IMG/VR virus record: IMGVR_UViG_3300048631_000128
Span: 1 to 25,942 of that record
Length of the DNA: 25,942 nucleotides
Source of the DNA: a virus
Lineage: Duplodnaviria; Caudoviricetes
Reading direction: 5' to 3' (one strand)
The position numbers were made by a program, and so were the translations under genes. The number at the start of each line of letters is the position of its first letter. Positions within the stretch are counted from its first letter, which is position 1. Below, piece by piece: positions 1 to 25,942 of the stretch. The notes below the pieces were generated by a model. That model saw only the letters and a list, made by a program, of their open reading frames with translations. It was not told where the DNA came from and did not search any database.

Positions 1-450
1 AATAAAAACACTTCTACTGTCGAAAACTTTAAAGCTTTATTAAAGGCGTGTCAAACAGCAACCAACCTTGAGTCACTAGCACAACAAGAAGTTGCAAAGA
101 CTTATATTAGCGACCATAACGCTTTTGCTAATTACATAAACAGCCTTGAGCGTATCGGTGATTTTAAAGCTAAAGTTAAAGCATTTCAAGATATTTTAGG
201 TAAGCAAGCAACTCAACGCCTTGCATTTGAAATTAAAGACGAAAAGCAAAAGCCAACGCACAAACTGAAGTTTAAAACAGCTAATAAAACGCTACTTGCT
301 CAAGGGTTATGTTCAATACAGCAACTAGAAGCAAAAGCATATATTTGGATTTTACAAGAATTGAAGCCAACAATTGAAAAGTCATTTGAAGAAGAATTAG
401 AAGCATTAATGAAGAAGCACGAAGTACAAGGTGAATTTATTAAAGCATAA
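1..450 (+). CDS. Hypothetical early protein, 5'-truncated (>=149 aa, NKNTSTVENF...EFIKA)
   Basis: Frame 1 is open from base 1 to TAA at 448-450 (hand-translated); start lies outside the window. Confidence 0.75.
   Translation, partial: NKNTSTVENFKALLKACQTATNLESLAQQEVAKTYISDHNAFANYINSLERIGDFKAKVKAFQDILGKQATQRLAFEIKDEKQKPTHKLKFKTANKTLLAQGLCSIQQLEAKAYIWILQELKPTIEKSFEEELEALMKKHEVQGEFIKA
10..26. repeat. Early palindrome copy 1 (ACTTCTACTGTCGAAAA; inverted relative to copy 5)
   Basis: Reverse complement TTTTCGACAGTAGAAGT matches copy 5 at 15/17; followed by CTTTA like copies 2, 4 and 5. Confidence 0.75.
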
Positions 451-453
451 TAC

Positions 454-470
454 TTTTAGATAGTCGAAAA
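454..470. repeat. Early palindrome copy 2 (TTTTAGATAGTCGAAAA)
   Basis: 3 nt after the stop at 450; followed by CTTTATAAGT. Confidence 0.9.
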
Positions 471-525
471 CTTTATAAGTTAGTAGGCTAACCAACAACA
501 AGTAAAAACAACAAGGACAAACAAT

Positions 526-1047
526 ATGAATTATTCTACTCTTAAGGACAATACCAACCTCGACCATAATAGTTGTACGGTGATTGCATCCTCTCTAGTC
601 TTTAACCAACCATATGACGAAATGCTGAAGCATTATGACCGCCAAGGACGAAGACGGGGGCGCGGTGTTGAACCTACAGAAGTTAGGCGTATTAATATGG
701 ATTTAGCCTTGAAGTTTAACTATGAAGCCAGTGTTACCACCCGTGAGAATGTCAGGACGTGGACTATTAGAAAACACGGTGCAAGGGGTGCAACAATGAC
801 TGTTGGTAACTGTAATAAATACCTTAGAGCTGACCGAAATTATATATTAGGTGTTAGAGGTCATTCAGTGGCTATGGTTAACGGTGTTATTGAAGACCAT
901 ACAGCAGGGCGTAAAAATAGAATTATATCTATTATTGAATTAAAACCACCTGTTGGTCAAGAAGTAGAAGTTTTAGACAGTCGAAAACTATTGATTCAAG
1001 AAGTAGTAGAAGCAGAAGCAATGATTAAATTATTAGGGGAAATGTAA
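526..1047 (+). CDS. Hypothetical protein, putative papain/C39-like Cys-His-Asp fold
   Basis: RBS AAGGA; NSCTVIA...GHSVAMVNGVIED pattern; function is inferred. Confidence 0.6.
   Translation: MNYSTLKDNTNLDHNSCTVIASSLVFNQPYDEMLKHYDRQGRRRGRGVEPTEVRRINMDLALKFNYEASVTTRENVRTWTIRKHGARGATMTVGNCNKYLRADRNYILGVRGHSVAMVNGVIEDHTAGRKNRIISIIELKPPVGQEVEVLDSRKLLIQEVVEAEAMIKLLGEM
971..987. repeat. Early palindrome copy 3 (TTTTAGACAGTCGAAAA), intragenic
   Basis: Extends to AGTTTTAGACAGTCGAAAACT; encodes VLDSRK in-frame. Confidence 0.9.
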
Positions 1048-1283
1048 TGAGTACGTACAAATTAACTGAAACTGAAAACTATACCGTGGGTTTAAATAAC
1101 AATGGCTTAAGGGGTTATTTTGAACATCACCGATTAGGTGAGGATAAAGCAGGGGAAATATTAATCAATGAGCAGGGTGAACTATACGACTATGACGGGT
1201 GCTGGATGCTACCTAAAGAAGTTGCACTAGAGATAGAATCTAGAGGGGTTAATATCGCCTATGTTAAAGGTGAGTACAAATAG
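1047..1283 (+). CDS. Small acidic phage hypothetical protein (GYFEH...DYDG..LP motif)
   Basis: TAATG coupling to the upstream gene; RBS AGGGG. Confidence 0.75.
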   Translation: MSTYKLTETENYTVGLNNNGLRGYFEHHRLGEDKAGEILINEQGELYDYDGCWMLPKEVALEIESRGVNIAYVKGEYK

Positions 1284-1300
1284 TTTTAGACAGTAGAAAA
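1284..1300. repeat. Early palindrome copy 4 (TTTTAGACAGTAGAAAA)
   Basis: Directly abuts the TAG stop at 1283; followed by CTTTATAAGT and an RBS. Confidence 0.9.
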
Positions 1301-1331
1301 CTTTATAAGTAAAAACAATAAGGAGAAACAA

Positions 1332-2018
1332 ATGTTAGTAATAAATAATTTAGATGAATATATATTTCACCATAACTTTAAATTTACATTAAAGAGTGCT
1401 GAGGAAGAAGTAGGGGGATTATCAAGTGGAAGTAAGATGGTTGTGCCTTCTACTGGATTTAATACTGATGACTGTATAACAGGTAGTAAATTAAAGAAGT
1501 GTGCGGGTAGTGTATGTGAGGATTGTTATTCTGACAAGGGCTTTGCTAAAGTATTTGAGAAGAATGTACGACCTGCGCGAGATAGACGACTAAAAGCACT
1601 TAAGAATAGAGGGTGGGTAAATGCGTGGGTACATATCCTCAATAATAAGAAAATATATCAAACTCATAAGATTATGAGGTGGCAGGATAGTGGTGATTTA
1701 CAAGGTGAGTGGCATTTAGATAATATTATCGAGGTGGCAATAAGAACTCCCGATATCCTACATTGGCTACCTACTAAGGAATCATTTGTTAAGTGGCAGA
1801 AGAACTATCCACCTAATTTACTTATAAGATTAAGTGCTAGTTTTACTGATGGAAACCCACCTAATTTTACTAATACTTCTACTGTTACAACTGATGTAGA
1901 AGCGGTGACTTGTAAAGCAAGTCTACCAAAGGGACACCCTGAGAAATTGGATGGGTGTGAAGACTGTCGCCAGTGTTGGGACAAAAGTGTAAGCAATGTT
2001 GCTTATTACAAACATTAG
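1332..2018 (+). CDS. GP88-family (Cys-rich, probably Fe-S / radical-SAM-like) protein
   Basis: SKM, C..GSKL....GSVCxxCY..KG, RWQDSGD, HWLPTKE, PNLLIRLS and C-terminal CxxCxxCW motifs; RBS AAGGAG. Confidence 0.8.
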   Translation: MLVINNLDEYIFHHNFKFTLKSAEEEVGGLSSGSKMVVPSTGFNTDDCITGSKLKKCAGSVCEDCYSDKGFAKVFEKNVRPARDRRLKALKNRGWVNAWVHILNNKKIYQTHKIMRWQDSGDLQGEWHLDNIIEVAIRTPDILHWLPTKESFVKWQKNYPPNLLIRLSASFTDGNPPNFTNTSTVTTDVEAVTCKASLPKGHPEKLDGCEDCRQCWDKSVSNVAYYKH

Positions 2019-2035
2019 TTTTCGACAGTAGAAAA
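2019..2035. repeat. Early palindrome copy 5 (TTTTCGACAGTAGAAAA)
   Basis: Directly abuts the TAG stop at 2018; RBS GGAG follows. Confidence 0.9.
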
Positions 2036-2054
2036 CTTTAAACGGAGAGTAAAA

Positions 2055-2213
2055 ATGGAAACAGTAATAATAGGGTTAGGTATGGCAACGGTAGTGGGTT
2101 TGTTGATGTTCGCACTAGTAATGGCATTTGACTTAAACAAGTTAATTAATAAAGAAGCACAGCAGTTGCACGGTGGTGAGCTGACTAAATTTAAAACAAA
2201 AGGAGAAAAGTAA
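2055..2213 (+). CDS. Small single-pass membrane protein, 52 aa (METVIIGLGMATVVGLLMFALVMAF...)
   Basis: Hand-found; RBS GGAG; TAATG coupling to the next gene; hydrophobic N-terminus. Confidence 0.75.
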   Translation: METVIIGLGMATVVGLLMFALVMAFDLNKLINKEAQQLHGGELTKFKTKGEK

Positions 2214-2461
2214 TGGAAATTAAGATTAAGACAAAGGAAACATTTAGAGGTACAAGACGTGCATATCAATTAGCAAGGGGTGTGTTTAGTTACCTAGACC
2301 ACGAAGGACTTGATATTGATTATCGCTATGATAACTACACACTTACAATAGAACTACCTAATGCACAGTATAGAGATACGTCTAAGCTAGTGATATTACA
2401 AGAACTATTAGAGGAGTTTGATTGTCTAGCTGACGTAGAACAGGAGAGTTATGATGAGTAG
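2213..2461 (+). CDS. Hypothetical protein
   Basis: RBS AAGGAG; coupled start. Confidence 0.75.
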   Translation: MEIKIKTKETFRGTRRAYQLARGVFSYLDHEGLDIDYRYDNYTLTIELPNAQYRDTSKLVILQELLEEFDCLADVEQESYDE

Positions 2462-2654
2462 TACTATTAGAGATGATGTTAGGTATTTTGATTGTTGTTT
2501 ATGTGGGGAAATCTTCGAGGGGTATGGTAATAATCCAGAACCAGTAGCAAGTACTTGGGACGATTTCAAAGAAGTAGAAATAGATGTTGAATGTTGTATT
2601 GCTTGTAATAACACAAAGGTTATACCTGCAAGAATGAAGGAGATGGGATTATGA
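2451..2654 (+). CDS. Small zinc-finger phage protein (CCLC..GYGNNPEP...CCIAC..VIPAR)
   Basis: Two CxxC pairs; RBS AGGAG. Confidence 0.75.
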   Translation: MMSSTIRDDVRYFDCCLCGEIFEGYGNNPEPVASTWDDFKEVEIDVECCIACNNTKVIPARMKEMGL

Positions 2655-2959
2655 ATGAGAAAACACTAATAGGAAGACCTTACCGATTAAGCACTGCGTT
2701 GTCTGGCTTAAGATATGCCAAGATTGTGCAACTAGAGGTAGGACTGAGTGATAATGGATTTAAGGTGTTAGCTTATGTATCAGTACACGAGGGGGAAGCT
2801 ACTATTACTAGTATTACCAAAGACTCTTACTTTAGAGATGTTAGTTTCTCTACTATTAAGAGAGGGGTGCTAGAGGTGTTAGCTAGTGGGCTAGTAGAAT
2901 CACGTGTTAATGCATTAGATAAGAGAGTTAATAACTTATGGCTTAAGGAGGAAGTATGA
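2651..2959 (+). CDS. Hypothetical protein
   Basis: ATGA overlap; RBS AAGGAG. Confidence 0.7.
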   Translation: MNEKTLIGRPYRLSTALSGLRYAKIVQLEVGLSDNGFKVLAYVSVHEGEATITSITKDSYFRDVSFSTIKRGVLEVLASGLVESRVNALDKRVNNLWLKEEV

Positions 2960-3117
2960 GAATGTTAAACATACCAATAAGTGAGATGGATGTCGAATTA
3001 TTCAAAGATATTGTTTATCACAACAATACTGTTGAATGGATATTTGTAGATTCAGGAGGCAATGATGTTTGTATTACATTTATGTCGGTAGACGAACTAG
3101 AACAGAGGGAGAAATAG
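2956..3117 (+). CDS. Small acidic hypothetical protein, 53 aa (MRMLNIPISEMDVELF...)
   Basis: Hand-found; RBS AAGGAGG; ATGA overlap. Confidence 0.75.
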   Translation: MRMLNIPISEMDVELFKDIVYHNNTVEWIFVDSGGNDVCITFMSVDELEQREK

Positions 3118-3118
3118 T

Positions 3119-3277
3119 ATGACTGAACAGCAAGAGAATACATTATCTGATTTACACTATCTAGTAGCGAATAAAAACTATTGGGTAGATAGATGGCATA
3201 AAGATGAAACATCCTTTGAGATGTGGAGAGCTATTGATGAAGCTATTGAATTAATTGATGAACTAAAGGAGAAATAA
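3119..3277 (+). CDS. Small hypothetical protein, 52 aa (MTEQQENTLSDLHYLV...)
   Basis: Hand-found; RBS GGGAG; fills the gap exactly. Confidence 0.75.
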   Translation: MTEQQENTLSDLHYLVANKNYWVDRWHKDETSFEMWRAIDEAIELIDELKEK

Positions 3278-3278
3278 T

Positions 3279-3527
3279 ATGACTGAAGTAGAAGAACTAA
3301 AACTATTTATGCTTAATGCTAGTGGTGATTTCTTAACAGAGCCACTACCTACTAACTTTGATGAGTTAGACGAGGGCGTACTTCATCGTTTTATTCAAGT
3401 GAACCTATGGCAACCACTTGCTGATTACTATGATGAACCACATCAAATATATGACTTCATTGAGAGTTCTGCTTATAGCACGATGAGATTTGTTAGGGAA
3501 AATTATTTATTAAAGGAGATAGTATGA
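3279..3527 (+). CDS. Acidic hypothetical protein
   Basis: RBS AAGGAG. Confidence 0.75.
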   Translation: MTEVEELKLFMLNASGDFLTEPLPTNFDELDEGVLHRFIQVNLWQPLADYYDEPHQIYDFIESSAYSTMRFVRENYLLKEIV

Positions 3528-3817
3528 CTACTAAAGTTAAATGGAAGGAAGGTATGCATTTAGATGAATACAACAGACTCGTTAAAGAGGAAGAGTACGA
3601 GAAGTGGCTAAGCATAATGGATAGGTTGTTATATAACAAAGCTAAATCAGATGTAGACGATAAAGGAATTTATCTTGATGATGAGATAGGTGGAGGCGAT
3701 TACATAGACAGCATAGAACGTGTAATAGGAAGTATGGCACGTACTCTATATGATTGCTATGAAGATAACATTGATGATATTATTCTAGAGGAGATTGGAA
3801 GTGATAGCTACAACTAA
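3524..3817 (+). CDS. Very acidic hypothetical protein (possible DNA mimic)
   Basis: RBS AAGGAG; about a quarter of residues are D/E. Confidence 0.7.
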   Translation: MTTKVKWKEGMHLDEYNRLVKEEEYEKWLSIMDRLLYNKAKSDVDDKGIYLDDEIGGGDYIDSIERVIGSMARTLYDCYEDNIDDIILEEIGSDSYN

Positions 3818-4127
3818 AGTTTTAGACAGTCGAAAAGTATTTGACCGTGAGAGATATAAGATGGAGTATCAAGCTAGATTCAAATATGAAGGTGTTAAAT
3901 TAGAACGTAGGATGGAAGCTCTAAAGGAACTCAGAGTAGTAGACGGTAAGAATATTAGTTATGGTAAGTACCTCCACGATTATATTAGGAGTATGTCATT
4001 TACTTATCACGCTAGTGGAGATAACGCTAAGAAATATAAGAAGATATCGATGATGGTGGAGCAGATGGCTAAGGCACAATGGGCTAACTTTAAGATTGCA
4101 CCACTACCATTAGAACTTAAGGAGTAA
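3795..4127 (+). CDS. Basic hypothetical protein (start uncertain: TTG 3795, GTG 3801 or ATG 3860)
   Basis: GAGGAG upstream of GTG 3801; open frame to 4127. Confidence 0.65.
   Translation: MEVIATTKVLDSRKVFDRERYKMEYQARFKYEGVKLERRMEALKELRVVDGKNISYGKYLHDYIRSMSFTYHASGDNAKKYKKISMMVEQMAKAQWANFKIAPLPLELKE
3820..3836. repeat. Early palindrome copy 6 (TTTTAGACAGTCGAAAA)
   Basis: 2 nt after the stop at 3817; core identical to copies 3 and 7. Confidence 0.9.
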
Positions 4128-4129
4128 TT

Positions 4130-4198
4130 ATGGAAATAGCATTTGAATTATTTATAACAATATTAACAGTTGGATTAATGGTAGCAGGTAGCTACTAA
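4130..4198 (+). CDS. 22-aa hydrophobic mini-protein MEIAFELFITILTVGLMVAGSY
   Basis: Hand-found; AAGGAG RBS 5 nt before the ATG; fills the gap between genes. Confidence 0.6.
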   Translation: MEIAFELFITILTVGLMVAGSY

Positions 4199-4209
4199 GG
4201 AGAAAGCAA

Positions 4210-4614
4210 GTGGGGAATAAATTGAGGGAATACACACTAGATAACGGAGAAGTATATACAACAGTGTCATTAGCAGAGAAGTTTGATTTAACACCTAGTT
4301 CCTCATACCATAGGTTAAGTAAAACAGATAAAGCTAGTTATGTACTAAGACCTAAAGAGATATTTAATACTGTAGACGGTAGGAGATTGTATGTACTAGA
4401 TGATGGAAGCGAGTGGACATCTTTAATGGTAGCTGAGTTTACTGGGTGTAAACCTTCAACTGCATCCACACGATTAACGTGTTACACTGACCCTGAGAAG
4501 GTATTAAAGGTTCAACAGAAGAAAGCAGTAGATAGCCGAGTAAAGAACAGGATAGAGAACCGTATGTATTACGACCCTTTAGGTCATTGGGCGTTACTTA
4601 ATGCAAGTACATAG
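4210..4614 (+). CDS. Protein with two tandem HTH-like repeats, putative DNA-binding
   Basis: YTLDNGEVYTTVSLAEKFDLTPSSSYHRL and YVLDDGSEWTSLMVAEFTGCKPSTASTRL; GTG start with AAGGAG. Confidence 0.65.
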   Translation: MGNKLREYTLDNGEVYTTVSLAEKFDLTPSSSYHRLSKTDKASYVLRPKEIFNTVDGRRLYVLDDGSEWTSLMVAEFTGCKPSTASTRLTCYTDPEKVLKVQQKKAVDSRVKNRIENRMYYDPLGHWALLNAST

Positions 4615-4643
4615 TAACTATTAGGTAAATAATAACTAAATAG

Positions 4644-4660
4644 TTTTAGACAGTCGAAAA
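4644..4660. repeat. Early palindrome copy 7 (TTTTAGACAGTCGAAAA)
   Basis: Intergenic, just upstream of the GGGAG RBS of the gene coupled to RNAP. Confidence 0.9.
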
Positions 4661-4678: not shown

Positions 4679-4852
4679 ATGAGTAGAATTACAGATTACA
4701 TATTAGAACAAGAAGAGTTAGGAAACATAGTTTATACCGAGGGCAGGGGTTATGTAGACCTCAGAATACAACCAGACGAGGAGGAGTTTGTTAAAGAGCG
4801 TGAGTCTTGGATTGTTGAGCAGTTTGAACTTAGTTTAGAGGAGATTAAGTAA
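4679..4852 (+). CDS. Small acidic protein, 57 aa (MSRITDYILEQEELG...), coupled to the RNAP gene
   Basis: Hand-found; RBS GGGAG; TAATG overlap with the RNAP start. Confidence 0.75.
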   Translation: MSRITDYILEQEELGNIVYTEGRGYVDLRIQPDEEEFVKERESWIVEQFELSLEEIK

Positions 4853-7389
4853 TGGATTTAGTTAAGGAACAGGAACGACTTGAGGGGTTACAATTAACAG
4901 AGGCACGAGCCAAAGTAATTAAGAACTACCTTAACTTAGTAGGAACGGACAAAGGTAATGTCACAGCAGAGGGAATAGCACTTCAGAAGCTAGGTATCGA
5001 GAGATTAGCAGGAGTTATTAAAGAGTATTTCGATAAACCTTTAAGAGGAACTGTTAATCGGCAGCGTAAACCTCTACTTTCTTATAAAGGAAGGGAGACT
5101 GATTTAGCATTCCTTATTATATCTAGTGTTATATCTAGTGTTATGAAGCGACCTGCATCTGCACAGCAACTAGTAGGTATCTTACTTAGAAACTTAAAGA
5201 ACGATATTATGCTTGAGACATTCCAAGAGCAAGAACCTAAGTTATTCGCCTACATTGAGTATGAATACAAGAAGCGTGGTCAGGATTACATTAATTCTAG
5301 GAAGAAACGTCTAGCTCAGCTACTAGTAGAACAACAAGTAGAAGAGATTGATACAACTACTGGTGTTGCTATGATGGAATTACTAGTAGGAAGTAACCTA
5401 GGACTAATTGAGAAGTTTAGAAGACATACAACCAATACTAAGAGAGCAGGTAAGTCTCCACTTTACTTCTTTAAACTAACTGAGGATGCAGAAGAGGTAG
5501 TAGGGAACATACAACAGTTTTTAACAGAGTTATCAATAACTTACAAACCTCTAGTTATTCCTCCTAGGGAGTGGGGTGAGGGTATTTGTGGTGGTTATCA
5601 TCATTCTGATTGTAAAGGATTCATTAAACTAAAGAACAACAAGCAAAGAGGTATCTATGGTGGTTTAATTAAGGAAGGACTAGACTTAAGTCGGTTATAT
5701 TCTGTAGTTAATAAAATACAAGCCACTAGTTGGAGGGTTAATGAGTGGATGTTTGACGTAGTGGATAACATACTAGAGAATAATGTTACCGACTACTCTA
5801 AACCTAAAGACAATCCTAAATGTATCGCTGGACTACCTTACCAAGAGTACGTTAAAGTAGATGACTTAGTAAAACCTGAGAAATTTGGTAAGGTATTCAC
5901 AGATGCCAGAGGGTTTCCTAGACACGAGAATAGAGCAGACTACACCGCCTACTACAAACGAAGAGAGGACGTATTGGCGAAGTTAGAAGCAAATAACAGC
6001 AGAAGGATTATATATGCCGTTGCTTTTGACATTGCTAAACAATTTAAGAAGTACGATAAATTCTACTTCTCATACAAGTCTGATTTTAGAGGTAGACTAT
6101 ACCCAGTACAACAAGTATTTAATCCACAAGCAACATCTAATGTTAAAGCATTGATGGAGTTTGGTGAAGGGGTAGAACCAACAGTCGAAGGTATCTATTG
6201 GTTGAAAGTAGCACTTGCTAATGCACGTGGTTATGACAAACTACCATATGAGGAACGAGTTGCTTATGTTGATGCTAATATTAAAGAAATACTCCGAAGC
6301 GCTGAGAGTCCATTAGAGAGTGTTTCCTTCTGGACTGAAGCAGATGAACCACTAATGTTTTTAAGTGGATGTAAAGCACTCTCAGATGCCTTAGATGGTA
6401 AATTAGTACATTATCCTGTGCCTCTAGATGCTACTTGCTCAGGTATTCAGATTTACAGTGGTTTATTAATGGATGAAGAAGGAGCAAGGGCAGTTAATGT
6501 CATCAATAACGAAACAGGTAGACCTGCTGACATCTATAAAGAAGTAGCTGATGTGGTAGAACGCAGACTAATGAGTGGTGATTATCCTAAAGAGTTTACG
6601 TTCACTGATTCCGAGGGTAACTTCACCGAGGTTAAAACAACCAGAGAAGCACAAGGATTACGAGGTAAGGTAGACCGCAAGAAGACCAAGCGTAATGTTA
6701 TGACACAACCATACTCAGTAACACAGAGAGGTATGTATGAGCAACTCAGGGAGCTATTCGATGAAGCACAAGATGATGGTAAAGAGTTTTGGAAAGGTGA
6801 GAAGTGGGTGAGTATTAAACTATTAACCCACCTAAACACTCAAGCTATATTTGAGGTTGTTAAGGGTGCTATCATAGGTCAAGAATATATTAAAGAGATT
6901 ACCAAACACTTTAATCTAAGTAACAAACCTCTAGTATGGAAGACACCAATATTCGGATTCCCTGTTATACAAGCAAGTCAGAAGCGTAGGAAGAAGAGGT
7001 TAGCAACACAACTAGGTAAGCTACAGTTTACTTACTTAACAGGTGATATTGACAGTAGGAAGCAGACTAGTTCTATTGCTCCTAACTTCATTCACTCACT
7101 TGATGCTACTCTTATGTTGTTGACAGTAGAACGACTAGCAGAAGAATATAATGTTACTGACTTTGCTTTGATACACGATAGTTTTGCTGTTCCTTGTACT
7201 GAGGTTGCTCATCTAAACAATGCAGTACGTGATAGTTATGTAGAATTGTTTATGAGTGAGCCTTTAGCTGAGTGGTATGAGCAGTTACAAGCCAAACTAC
7301 CTAATGTAAAACTACAACATCCTGATGAGGTAATGTTATATACATTAAACATACAAGATGTATGGGACAGTGATTATATATTTAGTTAA
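4852..7389 (+). CDS. T7-like single-subunit DNA-directed RNA polymerase (gp1)
   Basis: DFRGRLY, motif A PVPLDATCSGIQ, motif B RKKTKRNVMTQPY, APNFIHSLDA, motif C IHDSF, C-terminal YIFS. Confidence 0.97.
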   Translation: MDLVKEQERLEGLQLTEARAKVIKNYLNLVGTDKGNVTAEGIALQKLGIERLAGVIKEYFDKPLRGTVNRQRKPLLSYKGRETDLAFLIISSVISSVMKRPASAQQLVGILLRNLKNDIMLETFQEQEPKLFAYIEYEYKKRGQDYINSRKKRLAQLLVEQQVEEIDTTTGVAMMELLVGSNLGLIEKFRRHTTNTKRAGKSPLYFFKLTEDAEEVVGNIQQFLTELSITYKPLVIPPREWGEGICGGYHHSDCKGFIKLKNNKQRGIYGGLIKEGLDLSRLYSVVNKIQATSWRVNEWMFDVVDNILENNVTDYSKPKDNPKCIAGLPYQEYVKVDDLVKPEKFGKVFTDARGFPRHENRADYTAYYKRREDVLAKLEANNSRRIIYAVAFDIAKQFKKYDKFYFSYKSDFRGRLYPVQQVFNPQATSNVKALMEFGEGVEPTVEGIYWLKVALANARGYDKLPYEERVAYVDANIKEILRSAESPLESVSFWTEADEPLMFLSGCKALSDALDGKLVHYPVPLDATCSGIQIYSGLLMDEEGARAVNVINNETGRPADIYKEVADVVERRLMSGDYPKEFTFTDSEGNFTEVKTTREAQGLRGKVDRKKTKRNVMTQPYSVTQRGMYEQLRELFDEAQDDGKEFWKGEKWVSIKLLTHLNTQAIFEVVKGAIIGQEYIKEITKHFNLSNKPLVWKTPIFGFPVIQASQKRRKKRLATQLGKLQFTYLTGDIDSRKQTSSIAPNFIHSLDATLMLLTVERLAEEYNVTDFALIHDSFAVPCTEVAHLNNAVRDSYVELFMSEPLAEWYEQLQAKLPNVKLQHPDEVMLYTLNIQDVWDSDYIFS

Positions 7390-24426: not shown

Positions 24427-25942
24427 ATGATTTCAGAGAAGAGTCTAGTAACAGTAGAAGGAACGACTATTTATAGTGTTGGCTTCGAGATTATATCGGA
24501 GGACCATTGTAATGTACTACTGAACACAGTACTACAATCGTCAGACACATATGACATTATTAACAACGCAGTAGTATTCCACACAGCCCCTACATCTGGT
24601 CAGAACTTGATGATTAGGGTTGGTACTACAGAGAGTGATTTAGCAGCATCACCAACTGATATTGGTATTGTTGCCACTTCAATTACTAATGTAAACCAAG
24701 TAGCAAACAACATTGCTAATGTACTTGCAGTAGATGCTAACAGCGCTAACGTGACTATCGTATCTACTAATATTGCTGATGTAAACACAGTGGCTACAGA
24801 CATTGCTAATGTGAATGCAGCAGTAGCTAATAAAGCTAATATTGATGCAGCGGTTGCTAATGCTACCAACATTAATAGTGCTGTAGCTAATGCTAGTAAC
24901 ATTAATAGTGCTGTGTCTAACGCAAGTAACATTAATGCCGCTGTAGCCAATGAGACTGATATTGATGCAGCAGTAGCTAACGAAGCTAACATTACAGCAG
25001 CGGTTGCTAATACAACTAATATTAACTCTGCGGTTTCTAACGCAACTAATATTAATGCTGCAGTTGCTAATGCGACTAATATCAATACAGTTGTAGCCAA
25101 TGAGACTGATATTACAACTGTTGCCACTAACGTAAGTTCTGTTAATACGGTAGCAGGTATCGGTTCTGCTGGTCTTGCAGGTATTGTTGCAAATGAAACT
25201 AATATTAACTTGGTTGGTACAGACATTGCTAATGTAAATACTACGGCAGGGTCAATTACTAATGTAAATACAGTGGCAGGTAATATTGCTGCAGTAAATA
25301 CTGTATCTAGTAATATAACTAAGGTTGTTAAGGTTGCTGATGATTTACTAGAGACTATCTCTGAGATTGAGACAGTAGCTCTAGACTTACAAGAGACTAC
25401 TAGTGAGATTGAAACAGTAGCAGCTTCAGTAGGTAATGTAGACACAGTAGGTGCAGCTATTACTAATGTAAATACTGTTGCTAGTGACATCGCTAATGTA
25501 AATACTACAGCTACTAATGTAGCTAATGTAAATACTACGGCAGGTTCAATTGCTAATGTAAATACTACTGCTACTAATATTGCTGATGTAAATACAGTAG
25601 CTACTAATATCACTGATGTAAATGCAGTAGCAAGTAATGCAACTAACATTAATGCCGTTGAAGGTAATGAAACTAACATTAACTCAGCAGTATCTAATGC
25701 TAGTAATATCAATGCAGCAGTAGCTAACGCAAGTAACATTAACTCAGCAGTGTCTAACGCAACTAATATCAACACAGCAGTATCTGAGTTAGCAGCGATT
25801 AATAACTATGCTGACACATATTCGTCTAATGCTACAGCTCCTAGTTCTCCTAGTACAGGTGACCTATGGTTTGATACCGCATCCCAGACAATGAAAGTAT
25901 ATGGTACATTAGGTTGGCAGAATGCTGGTTCATCTGTGAATG
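24427..25942 (+). CDS. Tail fibre protein, 3'-truncated (>=505 aa), with a 10-residue repeat shaft
   Basis: Hand-translated: MISEKSL...VFHTAPTSG..., (NINSAVANAS / NVNTVATNIA)n, then APSSPSTGDLWFDT...MKVY...W; no stop before the window end. Confidence 0.88.
   Translation, partial: MISEKSLVTVEGTTIYSVGFEIISEDHCNVLLNTVLQSSDTYDIINNAVVFHTAPTSGQNLMIRVGTTESDLAASPTDIGIVATSITNVNQVANNIANVLAVDANSANVTIVSTNIADVNTVATDIANVNAAVANKANIDAAVANATNINSAVANASNINSAVSNASNINAAVANETDIDAAVANEANITAAVANTTNINSAVSNATNINAAVANATNINTVVANETDITTVATNVSSVNTVAGIGSAGLAGIVANETNINLVGTDIANVNTTAGSITNVNTVAGNIAAVNTVSSNITKVVKVADDLLETISEIETVALDLQETTSEIETVAASVGNVDTVGAAITNVNTVASDIANVNTTATNVANVNTTAGSIANVNTTATNIADVNTVATNITDVNAVASNATNINAVEGNETNINSAVSNASNINAAVANASNINSAVSNATNINTAVSELAAINNYADTYSSNATAPSSPSTGDLWFDTASQTMKVYGTLGWQNAGSSVN
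24670..25800 (+). repeat. Degenerate 30-bp tandem coding repeats
   Basis: e.g. AACATTAATAGTGCTGTAGCTAATGCTAGT and AATGTAAATACTACGGCAGG units. Confidence 0.85.

Follow-up and report, generated by a model that had tools for sequence, protein, structure and literature searches.

What is served by a palindrome of 17-21 bp that recurs seven times in the early region of a deep-sea T7-like phage and is then absent from the rest of the sequence? The question is raised by virus record IMGVR_UViG_3300048631_000128 (Duplodnaviria; Caudoviricetes), a stretch of 25,942 bp that was analysed whole and is called the window here. The window is a partial T7-like genome which begins four codons into its first open reading frame (ORF), ORF1, and ends within a tail gene; the early promoter and the right genome end fall outside it. 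The reading developed below is that a predicted homodimer of the ORF1 protein binds the palindromes and represses or roadblocks early transcription by the host RNA polymerase. We give this reading a probability of somewhat more than one half, about 0.55.

The palindrome array

The 17-bp cores of the array start at 10, 454, 971, 1284, 2019, 3820 and 4644, the positions proposed in a preliminary description of the sequence. Scanning the window with up to three mismatches allowed gave 14 strand-matches against 1.17 expected, a number reached in 0 of 100 shuffles. With a symmetric position weight matrix the seven copies scored 22.7-30.4 and the next best place in the window 4.7; when copies were left out one at a time, they scored 17.5-29.8 as against at most 5.8 elsewhere in the window. 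These scores bear out the earlier claim that the other 21 kb hold no copies. Under uniform placement, the probability that all seven would fall within the first 4660 bases is 6e-6. Also as first described, none of the seven is a perfect dyad: 5-7 of the 8 pairs match in each copy.

Four of the copies begin 3, 0, 0 and 2 nucleotides (nt) past a stop codon, in agreement with the 0-3 nt originally noted. Site 2 (454..470) lies behind the ORF1 stop, site 4 (1284..1300) and site 5 (2019..2035) immediately behind the stops of ORF3 and of a GP88-family gene, respectively, and site 6 (3820..3836) behind the stop at 3817. Site 7 (4644..4660) follows the stop at 4614 by 29 nt and stands 18 nt ahead of the ATG at 4679, preceding, as had been stated, the ribosome binding site of a gene of 57 amino acids (aa) that is coupled to the RNA polymerase gene. 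With that T7-type RNA polymerase gene (4852..7389, + strand) the array-bearing early arm ends. The other two copies are intragenic. Site 1 (10..26), which has a degenerate left arm, lies within the first ORF1 codons, downstream of the early promoter seen in the related locus L144 (compared loci carry L numbers), and site 3 (971..987) lies within ORF2, right behind the peptidase domain, at a position kept in relatives, each with its own motif. No strand is assigned to the sites. The two intragenic placements stand as first reported, but the inversion ascribed to copy 1 does not: this copy differs from the others in the free centre base only, T in place of the A of the other six, so that the orientation of a site is undefined. 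L144 has A at this position, the T/A change there being synonymous, and centre-T copies also occur in L081 and L163.

Palindrome versions in relatives

Five versions of the palindrome were found among T7-like relatives, at the same junctions and including the copy inside the same gene. The window, L144 and L081 have TTTTMGAC-N-GTCGAAAA; L082, L083 and L178 have AGTTTTACAG-N-CTCGAAAACT; L080, L079, L179 and L106 have TTTTACAG-S-CTGTAA; L161 has AAGTACAG-S-CTGTAAAA; and L162, L163 and L077 have TTGTTCAC-W-GTGAACAA. L144, L161, L162, L163 and L179 were assigned to the T7-like group through shared early genes or terminase, with no polymerase on the contig used. Four of the five versions sit beside polymerases 79-100% identical to that of the window. 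Copies recur behind ORF1, within the 3' end of ORF2, behind the genes that follow and close to the polymerase gene; all six matches in L080 (22.5 kb read) and all five in L082 (17.3 kb) fall within or just ahead of the early arm. The copy inside ORF2 changes along with the other copies, the encoded peptides being VLDSRK, VLQPRK, VLQPVI, VQAVE and IVHSEQ. The changes preserve the dyad, as in centre C-N-G versus G-N-C, even where intragenic copies cost amino acids. Letters that change while symmetry persists would be expected of a site read by a dimer that switches specificity.

Phages of a different, non-T7 organisation, obtained among the ORF2-fetched loci and with no polymerase gene in the stretches read, also carry arrays, together with a distant ORF1 homolog ahead of ORF2. 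Their motifs are AGTTAAG-N2/3-CTTAACT, TTTTTAAG-N2-CTTAAAAA and AGTTAAA-N2-TTTAACT. The ORF1/ORF2 junction holds a site in the T7-like group, and in non-T7 relatives its place is taken by a hammerhead-like core or a terminator-like hairpin, a replacement that might point to a "stop or cut here" function.

ORF1 accompanies the array

To which gene does the array belong? In a blind test, one rule was applied uniformly to all loci in the set, dereplicated into clusters. At least four dispersed dyads were found in 13 of 23 ORF1-bearing clusters as against 2 of 99 clusters without ORF1, and at least three in 17 of 23 as against 12 of 99. L198, a locus fetched through an ORF1 sub-profile alone, proved to be a third phage type with a different gene set, and it carries seven copies of a new dyad, AGTATC-N3-GATACT, which lie ahead of ORF1, where ORF1 stops, at gene junctions and within a gene; no ORF2 homolog was seen in the L198 ORF list. 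L116, which has several early genes in common with the clade, showed neither an ORF1 match nor an array in the stretch examined.

Covariation was measured over 15 loci having both genes and a clear motif, each represented by one copy. Motif similarity was correlated with ORF1 identity in the whole set (rho 0.68), in the seven T7-like loci (rho 0.54, p 0.003) and in the eight non-T7 loci (rho 0.48, p 0.001), whereas the corresponding values for the neighbouring ORF2 were -0.06 (p 0.48) and 0.19 (p 0.15). In the ORF1 tree, the window type grouped with the L082 type (support 91, by a quick method), which has the same right half-site. These comparisons indicate that ORF1 is quite probably the binder of the array. 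The preliminary proposal that the repeats are sites for a dimeric protein is thereby supported, with the phage's own ORF1 as the candidate, while its argument from copies in both orientations lapses along with the orientation itself.

Several observations weigh against this assignment or against the repressive role proposed below. Six of the 23 ORF1-bearing clusters, all short or cut-off loci, failed the blind three-copy test; several of the six show sites by eye. The loci comprise three phage types only, so the counts entered into Fisher's test overstate independence. The ORF1-negative set does not consist entirely of early regions and includes cut-off clade members, and ORF1 and site 2 are physically linked. 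L161 and L162, with ORF1 proteins 46% identical, have motifs that differ (11/20 positions), L161 and L080 have 17 of 20 motif positions in common despite 21% ORF1 identity, and the window and L144 share one motif while their ORF1 proteins are only 65% identical (77% in residues 59-103). A residue-to-base code did not emerge, and one placed in beta-strand 91-97 did not hold up. DNA binding by ORF1 itself is something that we infer, because no known DNA-binding fold matched. As for the direction of the effect, copies upstream of the -35 are equally compatible with an activator, and most T7-like members examined have no copy overlapping a promoter.

Three other candidate binders were considered and rejected. 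ORF2 was a candidate since arrays appeared in ORF2-fetched loci, but it has a protease fold, does not covary with the motif and is unseen in L198. An ORF at 2651..2959 (+ strand), without a Pfam match, is putatively winged-helix/MarR-like; L080, whose early arm is complete, has no homolog of it, and its homologs occur in array-free loci such as L096, L113, L115 and L129. A tandem helix-turn-helix (HTH)-like ORF at 4210..4614 (+ strand; phrog_16568) seemed at first to track the motif, but of its 59 loci in other phages most lack a dyad array.

The ORF1 and ORF2 proteins

ORF1 (1..450, + strand) is cut off at its 5' end in the window; the full-length protein, P0002, has 153 aa and is 99% identical to the window frame. 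A profile search gathered 76 clusters at 50% identity, and in the family alignment of 90 sequences only Q67 and Q76 are invariant. The model of P0002 (predicted local distance difference test, pLDDT, 83) has long N-terminal helices and two short helices on which the invariant glutamines sit, along with a beta-hairpin and a helix at the C-terminus. The family is basic, with a median isoelectric point of 9.1 and 66 of 90 members above 8; residues 59-125 have a median net charge of +5 across the family. When two copies of residues 5-150 were modelled together, the predicted homodimer scored 0.82 as against 0.16 for the best control, the mark used being one which 20 of 30 solved homodimers, and 1 of 23 single chains, attained. 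The dimer runs agreed in at least 98% of contacts with pLDDT of at least 86, and the interface was predicted to involve mainly residues 10-69 and 132-144. The modelling thus supports a homodimer. In three of the 90 members (P0062, P0067 and P0072) a C-terminal sigma70 region 4 HTH is fused to the ORF1 domain.

Searches for known relatives of ORF1 gave little. Foldseek against PDB found no match at E 0.001; BFVD returned one unnamed viral protein (E 0.0096); the best VIA match, at Z 5.2, was to helical repeats; the best PDB sequence profile match had E 0.064; and the best match in ESM Atlas, at 0.87, was to unnamed clusters. PHROGs and Pfam contained no family common to the ORF1 core, and no HTH, ParB or other Pfam domain was found in that core. 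Two ORF1 homologs had no match among 50,697 annotated phages. As it has no clear structural relative, ORF1 may be a new DNA-binding fold, with the reservation that fruitless searches do not prove one.

ORF2 (526..1047, + strand; phrog_3754), the second early gene, is the usual neighbour of ORF1 and not its specificity partner. Its predicted fold is papain-like (C39-type), aligning with 6mpz_A at Z 8.7 over 110 residues with a root-mean-square deviation of 3.1, and the Cys-His-Asp set C17, H113 and D124 is invariant in 26 sequences. By fold and triad ORF2 is predicted to be a papain-like C39 peptidase. A weaker likeness to deubiquitinase folds was also seen. The protein may be an anti-defence enzyme.

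A proposed mechanism and its alternatives

The sites are limited to the early arm, where they occupy gene junctions and tolerant coding stretches. Upstream of the point at which the window starts, L144 has a terminase gene and then a non-coding end; DnaA-box-like 9-mers, clustered together, come next, followed by a sigma70-type promoter whose -10 is extended, and by ORF1. ORF1 is therefore the first early gene, with site 1 in its first codons. Transcribed from this promoter just upstream, ORF1 would be made first. Its predicted dimer would be held together by the N-terminal helices, leaving two basic heads (residues 59-125) free to match a two-fold site. ORF1 would then read the site, the protein and all copies of its site changing together, as co-occurrence and covariation suggest. 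Bound dimers at promoter-proximal copies would block initiation and those at downstream copies would be roadblocks to elongation, the least certain step; the downstream and in-gene copies suit roadblocks. Accumulation of ORF1 would thus exert negative feedback on the early genes and on the RNA polymerase gene, and the repeats may occasionally double as recombination boundaries. Among the functions listed in the preliminary description, an operator or gating array fits best, as far as sequence comparisons can tell.

ORF1 might instead bind the array in order to help or pace transcription, as an activator, as a processivity factor for the host polymerase, or as a brake that meters transcription-driven DNA entry and hinders superinfection by kin that bear the same motif. 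Twelve selected loci have one copy each centred upstream of a -35-like hexamer. Such promoter-proximal copies concentrate at distances of about 20-21 and 26-28 bp from the hexamer, where class I activators and UP elements also act; the spacing is nevertheless variable, 16-37 bp (a range read from the listed candidates). The sigma70 region 4 fusions and the restriction of the array to the arm that enters first would be in keeping with a helping or pacing role; T7 DNA enters the cell by transcription. Against this, most copies are distant from promoters and two are in genes, which suits roadblocks, and the module also occurs in phages of different organisation. We regard a helping or pacing role as possible but rather unlikely. 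Bolder is a picture in which the module is a portable early-arm governor in lytic phages of several families, its first-made protein of new fold and its self-renewing palindromes forming a ladder of roadblocks that meters transcription-driven DNA entry and early shut-off, and, since protein and sites would switch specificity jointly, sorts lytic T7-like phages into immunity-like groups that block only kin having the same palindrome; this we hold to be doubtful.

That the sites are crossover points which shuffle early-gene cassettes had also been suggested; on this view they would be kept alike by recombination, with no bound regulator. The window and L144 diverge between sites 1 and 2: they are near-identical up to a point shortly after site 1, and near-identity returns at site 2, where it rises from about 70% to about 94% (read from the alignment); a co-occurring variant has the same bounds, with joints at 36 and 449. 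Distant ORF2 cores have one common C-terminal tail which begins at the site, one slot flanked by sites holds unlike genes in L080 and in L179, and L161 has a tandem copy. But site-to-site joints numbered 0 in four runs, in contigs that drop rare variants; the one clear deletion, from 2654 to 3532 in three of the four runs, lies in a site-free stretch; the 24 listed loose ends, of 52, are all in the site-free stretch 2369-3556; and no recombinase was found among the 39 window ORFs against PHROGs. Recombination would also leave the kept symmetry, the promoter-proximal copies and the covariation with ORF1 unexplained. The allele swap of ORF1 is bounded by sites 1 and 2, other shuffling is off the sites, and crossover is a side effect at most; as the function of the array it is very unlikely.

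Recruitment or titration of a host transcription factor or nucleoid protein would be in keeping with the host-type sites of same-habitat phages, namely the Fur-like boxes of L120 and the clusters of DnaA boxes that lie upstream of the early promoter, but the earlier idea of a decoy for a host protein is weakened to the point of being highly improbable by the presence of five different dyads in close T7-like relatives, and by a search of 185,579 prokaryote genomes with the exact 19-mer pattern that gave 13 scattered single matches (exact matches only). Equally improbable is action in RNA, as RNase III-type processing hairpins or as terminators between early genes, which the copies right behind stop codons and ahead of A-rich leaders, and the hammerhead-like and terminator-like elements at one equivalent junction in non-T7 relatives, would suggest: six window copies folded with z from -1.40 to +0.68, the dyad hairpin mostly not forming, the symmetric centre would need a 1-nt loop, and promoter-upstream copies would not be transcribed. 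Six copies from relatives were also folded, and three had z between -1.8 and -2.4, with base pairing that was not that of the dyad.

Other readings of the repeats were set aside. A coded peptide tag is contradicted by the fact that most copies are non-coding and that the frame of site 1 differs. The TAGACA half is not a -35 box, no spaced -10 being found, and a promoter scan called fewer sites than expected by chance, without any + strand site at the repeats. The repeats are not promoters for the T7-type polymerase, which are asymmetric and serve middle and late genes: the sites are symmetric dyads with none past 4660, the window and L081 have the same motif with differing putative specificity loops, and arrays occur in non-T7 loci in which no polymerase gene was seen. 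A likeness to CRISPR repeat ends, parS, matS, PurR and LexA boxes was considered and dropped, since the motif varies among relatives.

Comparison with known systems

The operators of the lambdoid repressors, LacI, TetR and KorB of RK2 are dyads with a free central base that are read by dimers, and KorB sites are dispersed and partly intragenic. The window sites are likewise pseudo-palindromes with a free centre; unlike those operators, they mark a whole early arm and not a switch region, and the ORF1 core has no HTH or ParB domain. The RNase III sites of the T7 early transcript are long stable RNA hairpins at early-gene junctions. The array resembles them in punctuating early junctions, but a stable long stem was not found at the window copies.

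In T4-type phages RB49 and phi1, PeSL cassettes consist of a sigma70 promoter and a terminator hairpin (PMC2839356). Like PeSLs as described there, the repeats lie between variable early genes, where recombination between copies may swap genes. Unlike PeSLs, the window sites have no + strand promoter, terminator call or stable hairpin, and most shuffling is away from them.

The nearest parallel is with the stoperators of Cluster A mycobacteriophages such as L5 and TipsytheTRex. As described in PMC9283540, stoperators are asymmetric 13-mers whose orientation matters, bound in temperate phages by a monomeric repressor with HTH and Stoperator domains. In both systems many copies of a short site occupy promoter regions and short intergenic spaces and are bound by one phage protein, ORF1 being the presumptive one here. 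In that account the bound sites are proposed to stop initiation and elongation, with specificity that diversifies among relatives, and the same is proposed for ORF1 and its sites. The window sites differ in being dyads of 16-21 bp, limited to the early arm, with a centre base that varies between relatives. The candidate binder is predicted to be a homodimer whose fold has no clear known counterpart and whose core is without a match in Pfam or PDB. No integrase was found among the 39 ORFs of the partial genome. The array would work like stoperators but is not a member of the Cluster A system.

No paper on such arrays was found in the open-licence literature. What would be new is that a regulator belonging to no known family serves an operator array in a T7-like phage, and that the arrangement is common to several phage types; the kind of system is already known. 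T7-type phages are taught as being controlled by polymerase hand-over, with no operators; if a T7-like lineage does have dispersed operators and a regulator dedicated to them, that picture would change. The module would be a small protein-DNA pair, and its at least 10 natural site versions, with their cognate proteins, offer material for studying joint switching of specificity. It may also yield orthogonal repressors.

Genome context and minor observations

Besides the polymerase, the window encodes a single-stranded DNA-binding protein, primase, DNA polymerase, ribonucleotide reductase, and head and tail proteins. The closest named polymerase, at 40%, is that of Lauvirus lau218, and a clear array was not seen in the 17 kb of that phage examined. 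The early region is represented in 24 listed runs, every one of them labelled hydrothermal vent metagenome; 14 contain at least half of its words, and one may be the source. A metagenome scan gave two loci only. Exact motif matches were present in 73 virus loci, with several copies in one of them (L041, the same contig as L144). No related prophage was found in GTDB by polymerase patterns.

Several features were noted in passing. The hammerhead-like core (CTGANGA, GC stem, GAAAC, stem, TC, with variable stems) stands just past the ORF1 stop in non-T7 relatives, at L165:7891, L167:7074, L190:10597, L191:1184, L193:9989, L195:9115 and L196:3441; it is recognised by pattern only, with no call at the Rfam gathering threshold. 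Rfam gave no match in the window. The DnaA-box-like 9-mers form clusters of 2-3 within the non-coding end, upstream of the early promoter, in T7-like phages, at L144:2816-2859, L080:4985-5016, L162:3657-3688 and L178:7527-7581. Another marine phage locus has three 19-mers, presumably Fur-box-like, at L120:4678-4858.

Within the window, 2595-3556 contains no site and is a hot spot at which co-occurring populations swap genes, and 3119-3271 is common to other phages at much higher depth and is 97% identical to L116. The stretch that we take to be the specificity loop of the polymerase (6990-7030, residues ~712-726) is hypervariable among relatives 79-85% identical overall. A tail-fibre-like gene at 24427-25941 contains 30-bp tandem coding repeats. 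Finally, the element GGTGAGCCAAC is repeated around a distant polymerase-like gene in L102, L104 and L114 (e.g., L102:6628, 6736 and 9377), where the repeats are probably phage promoters.

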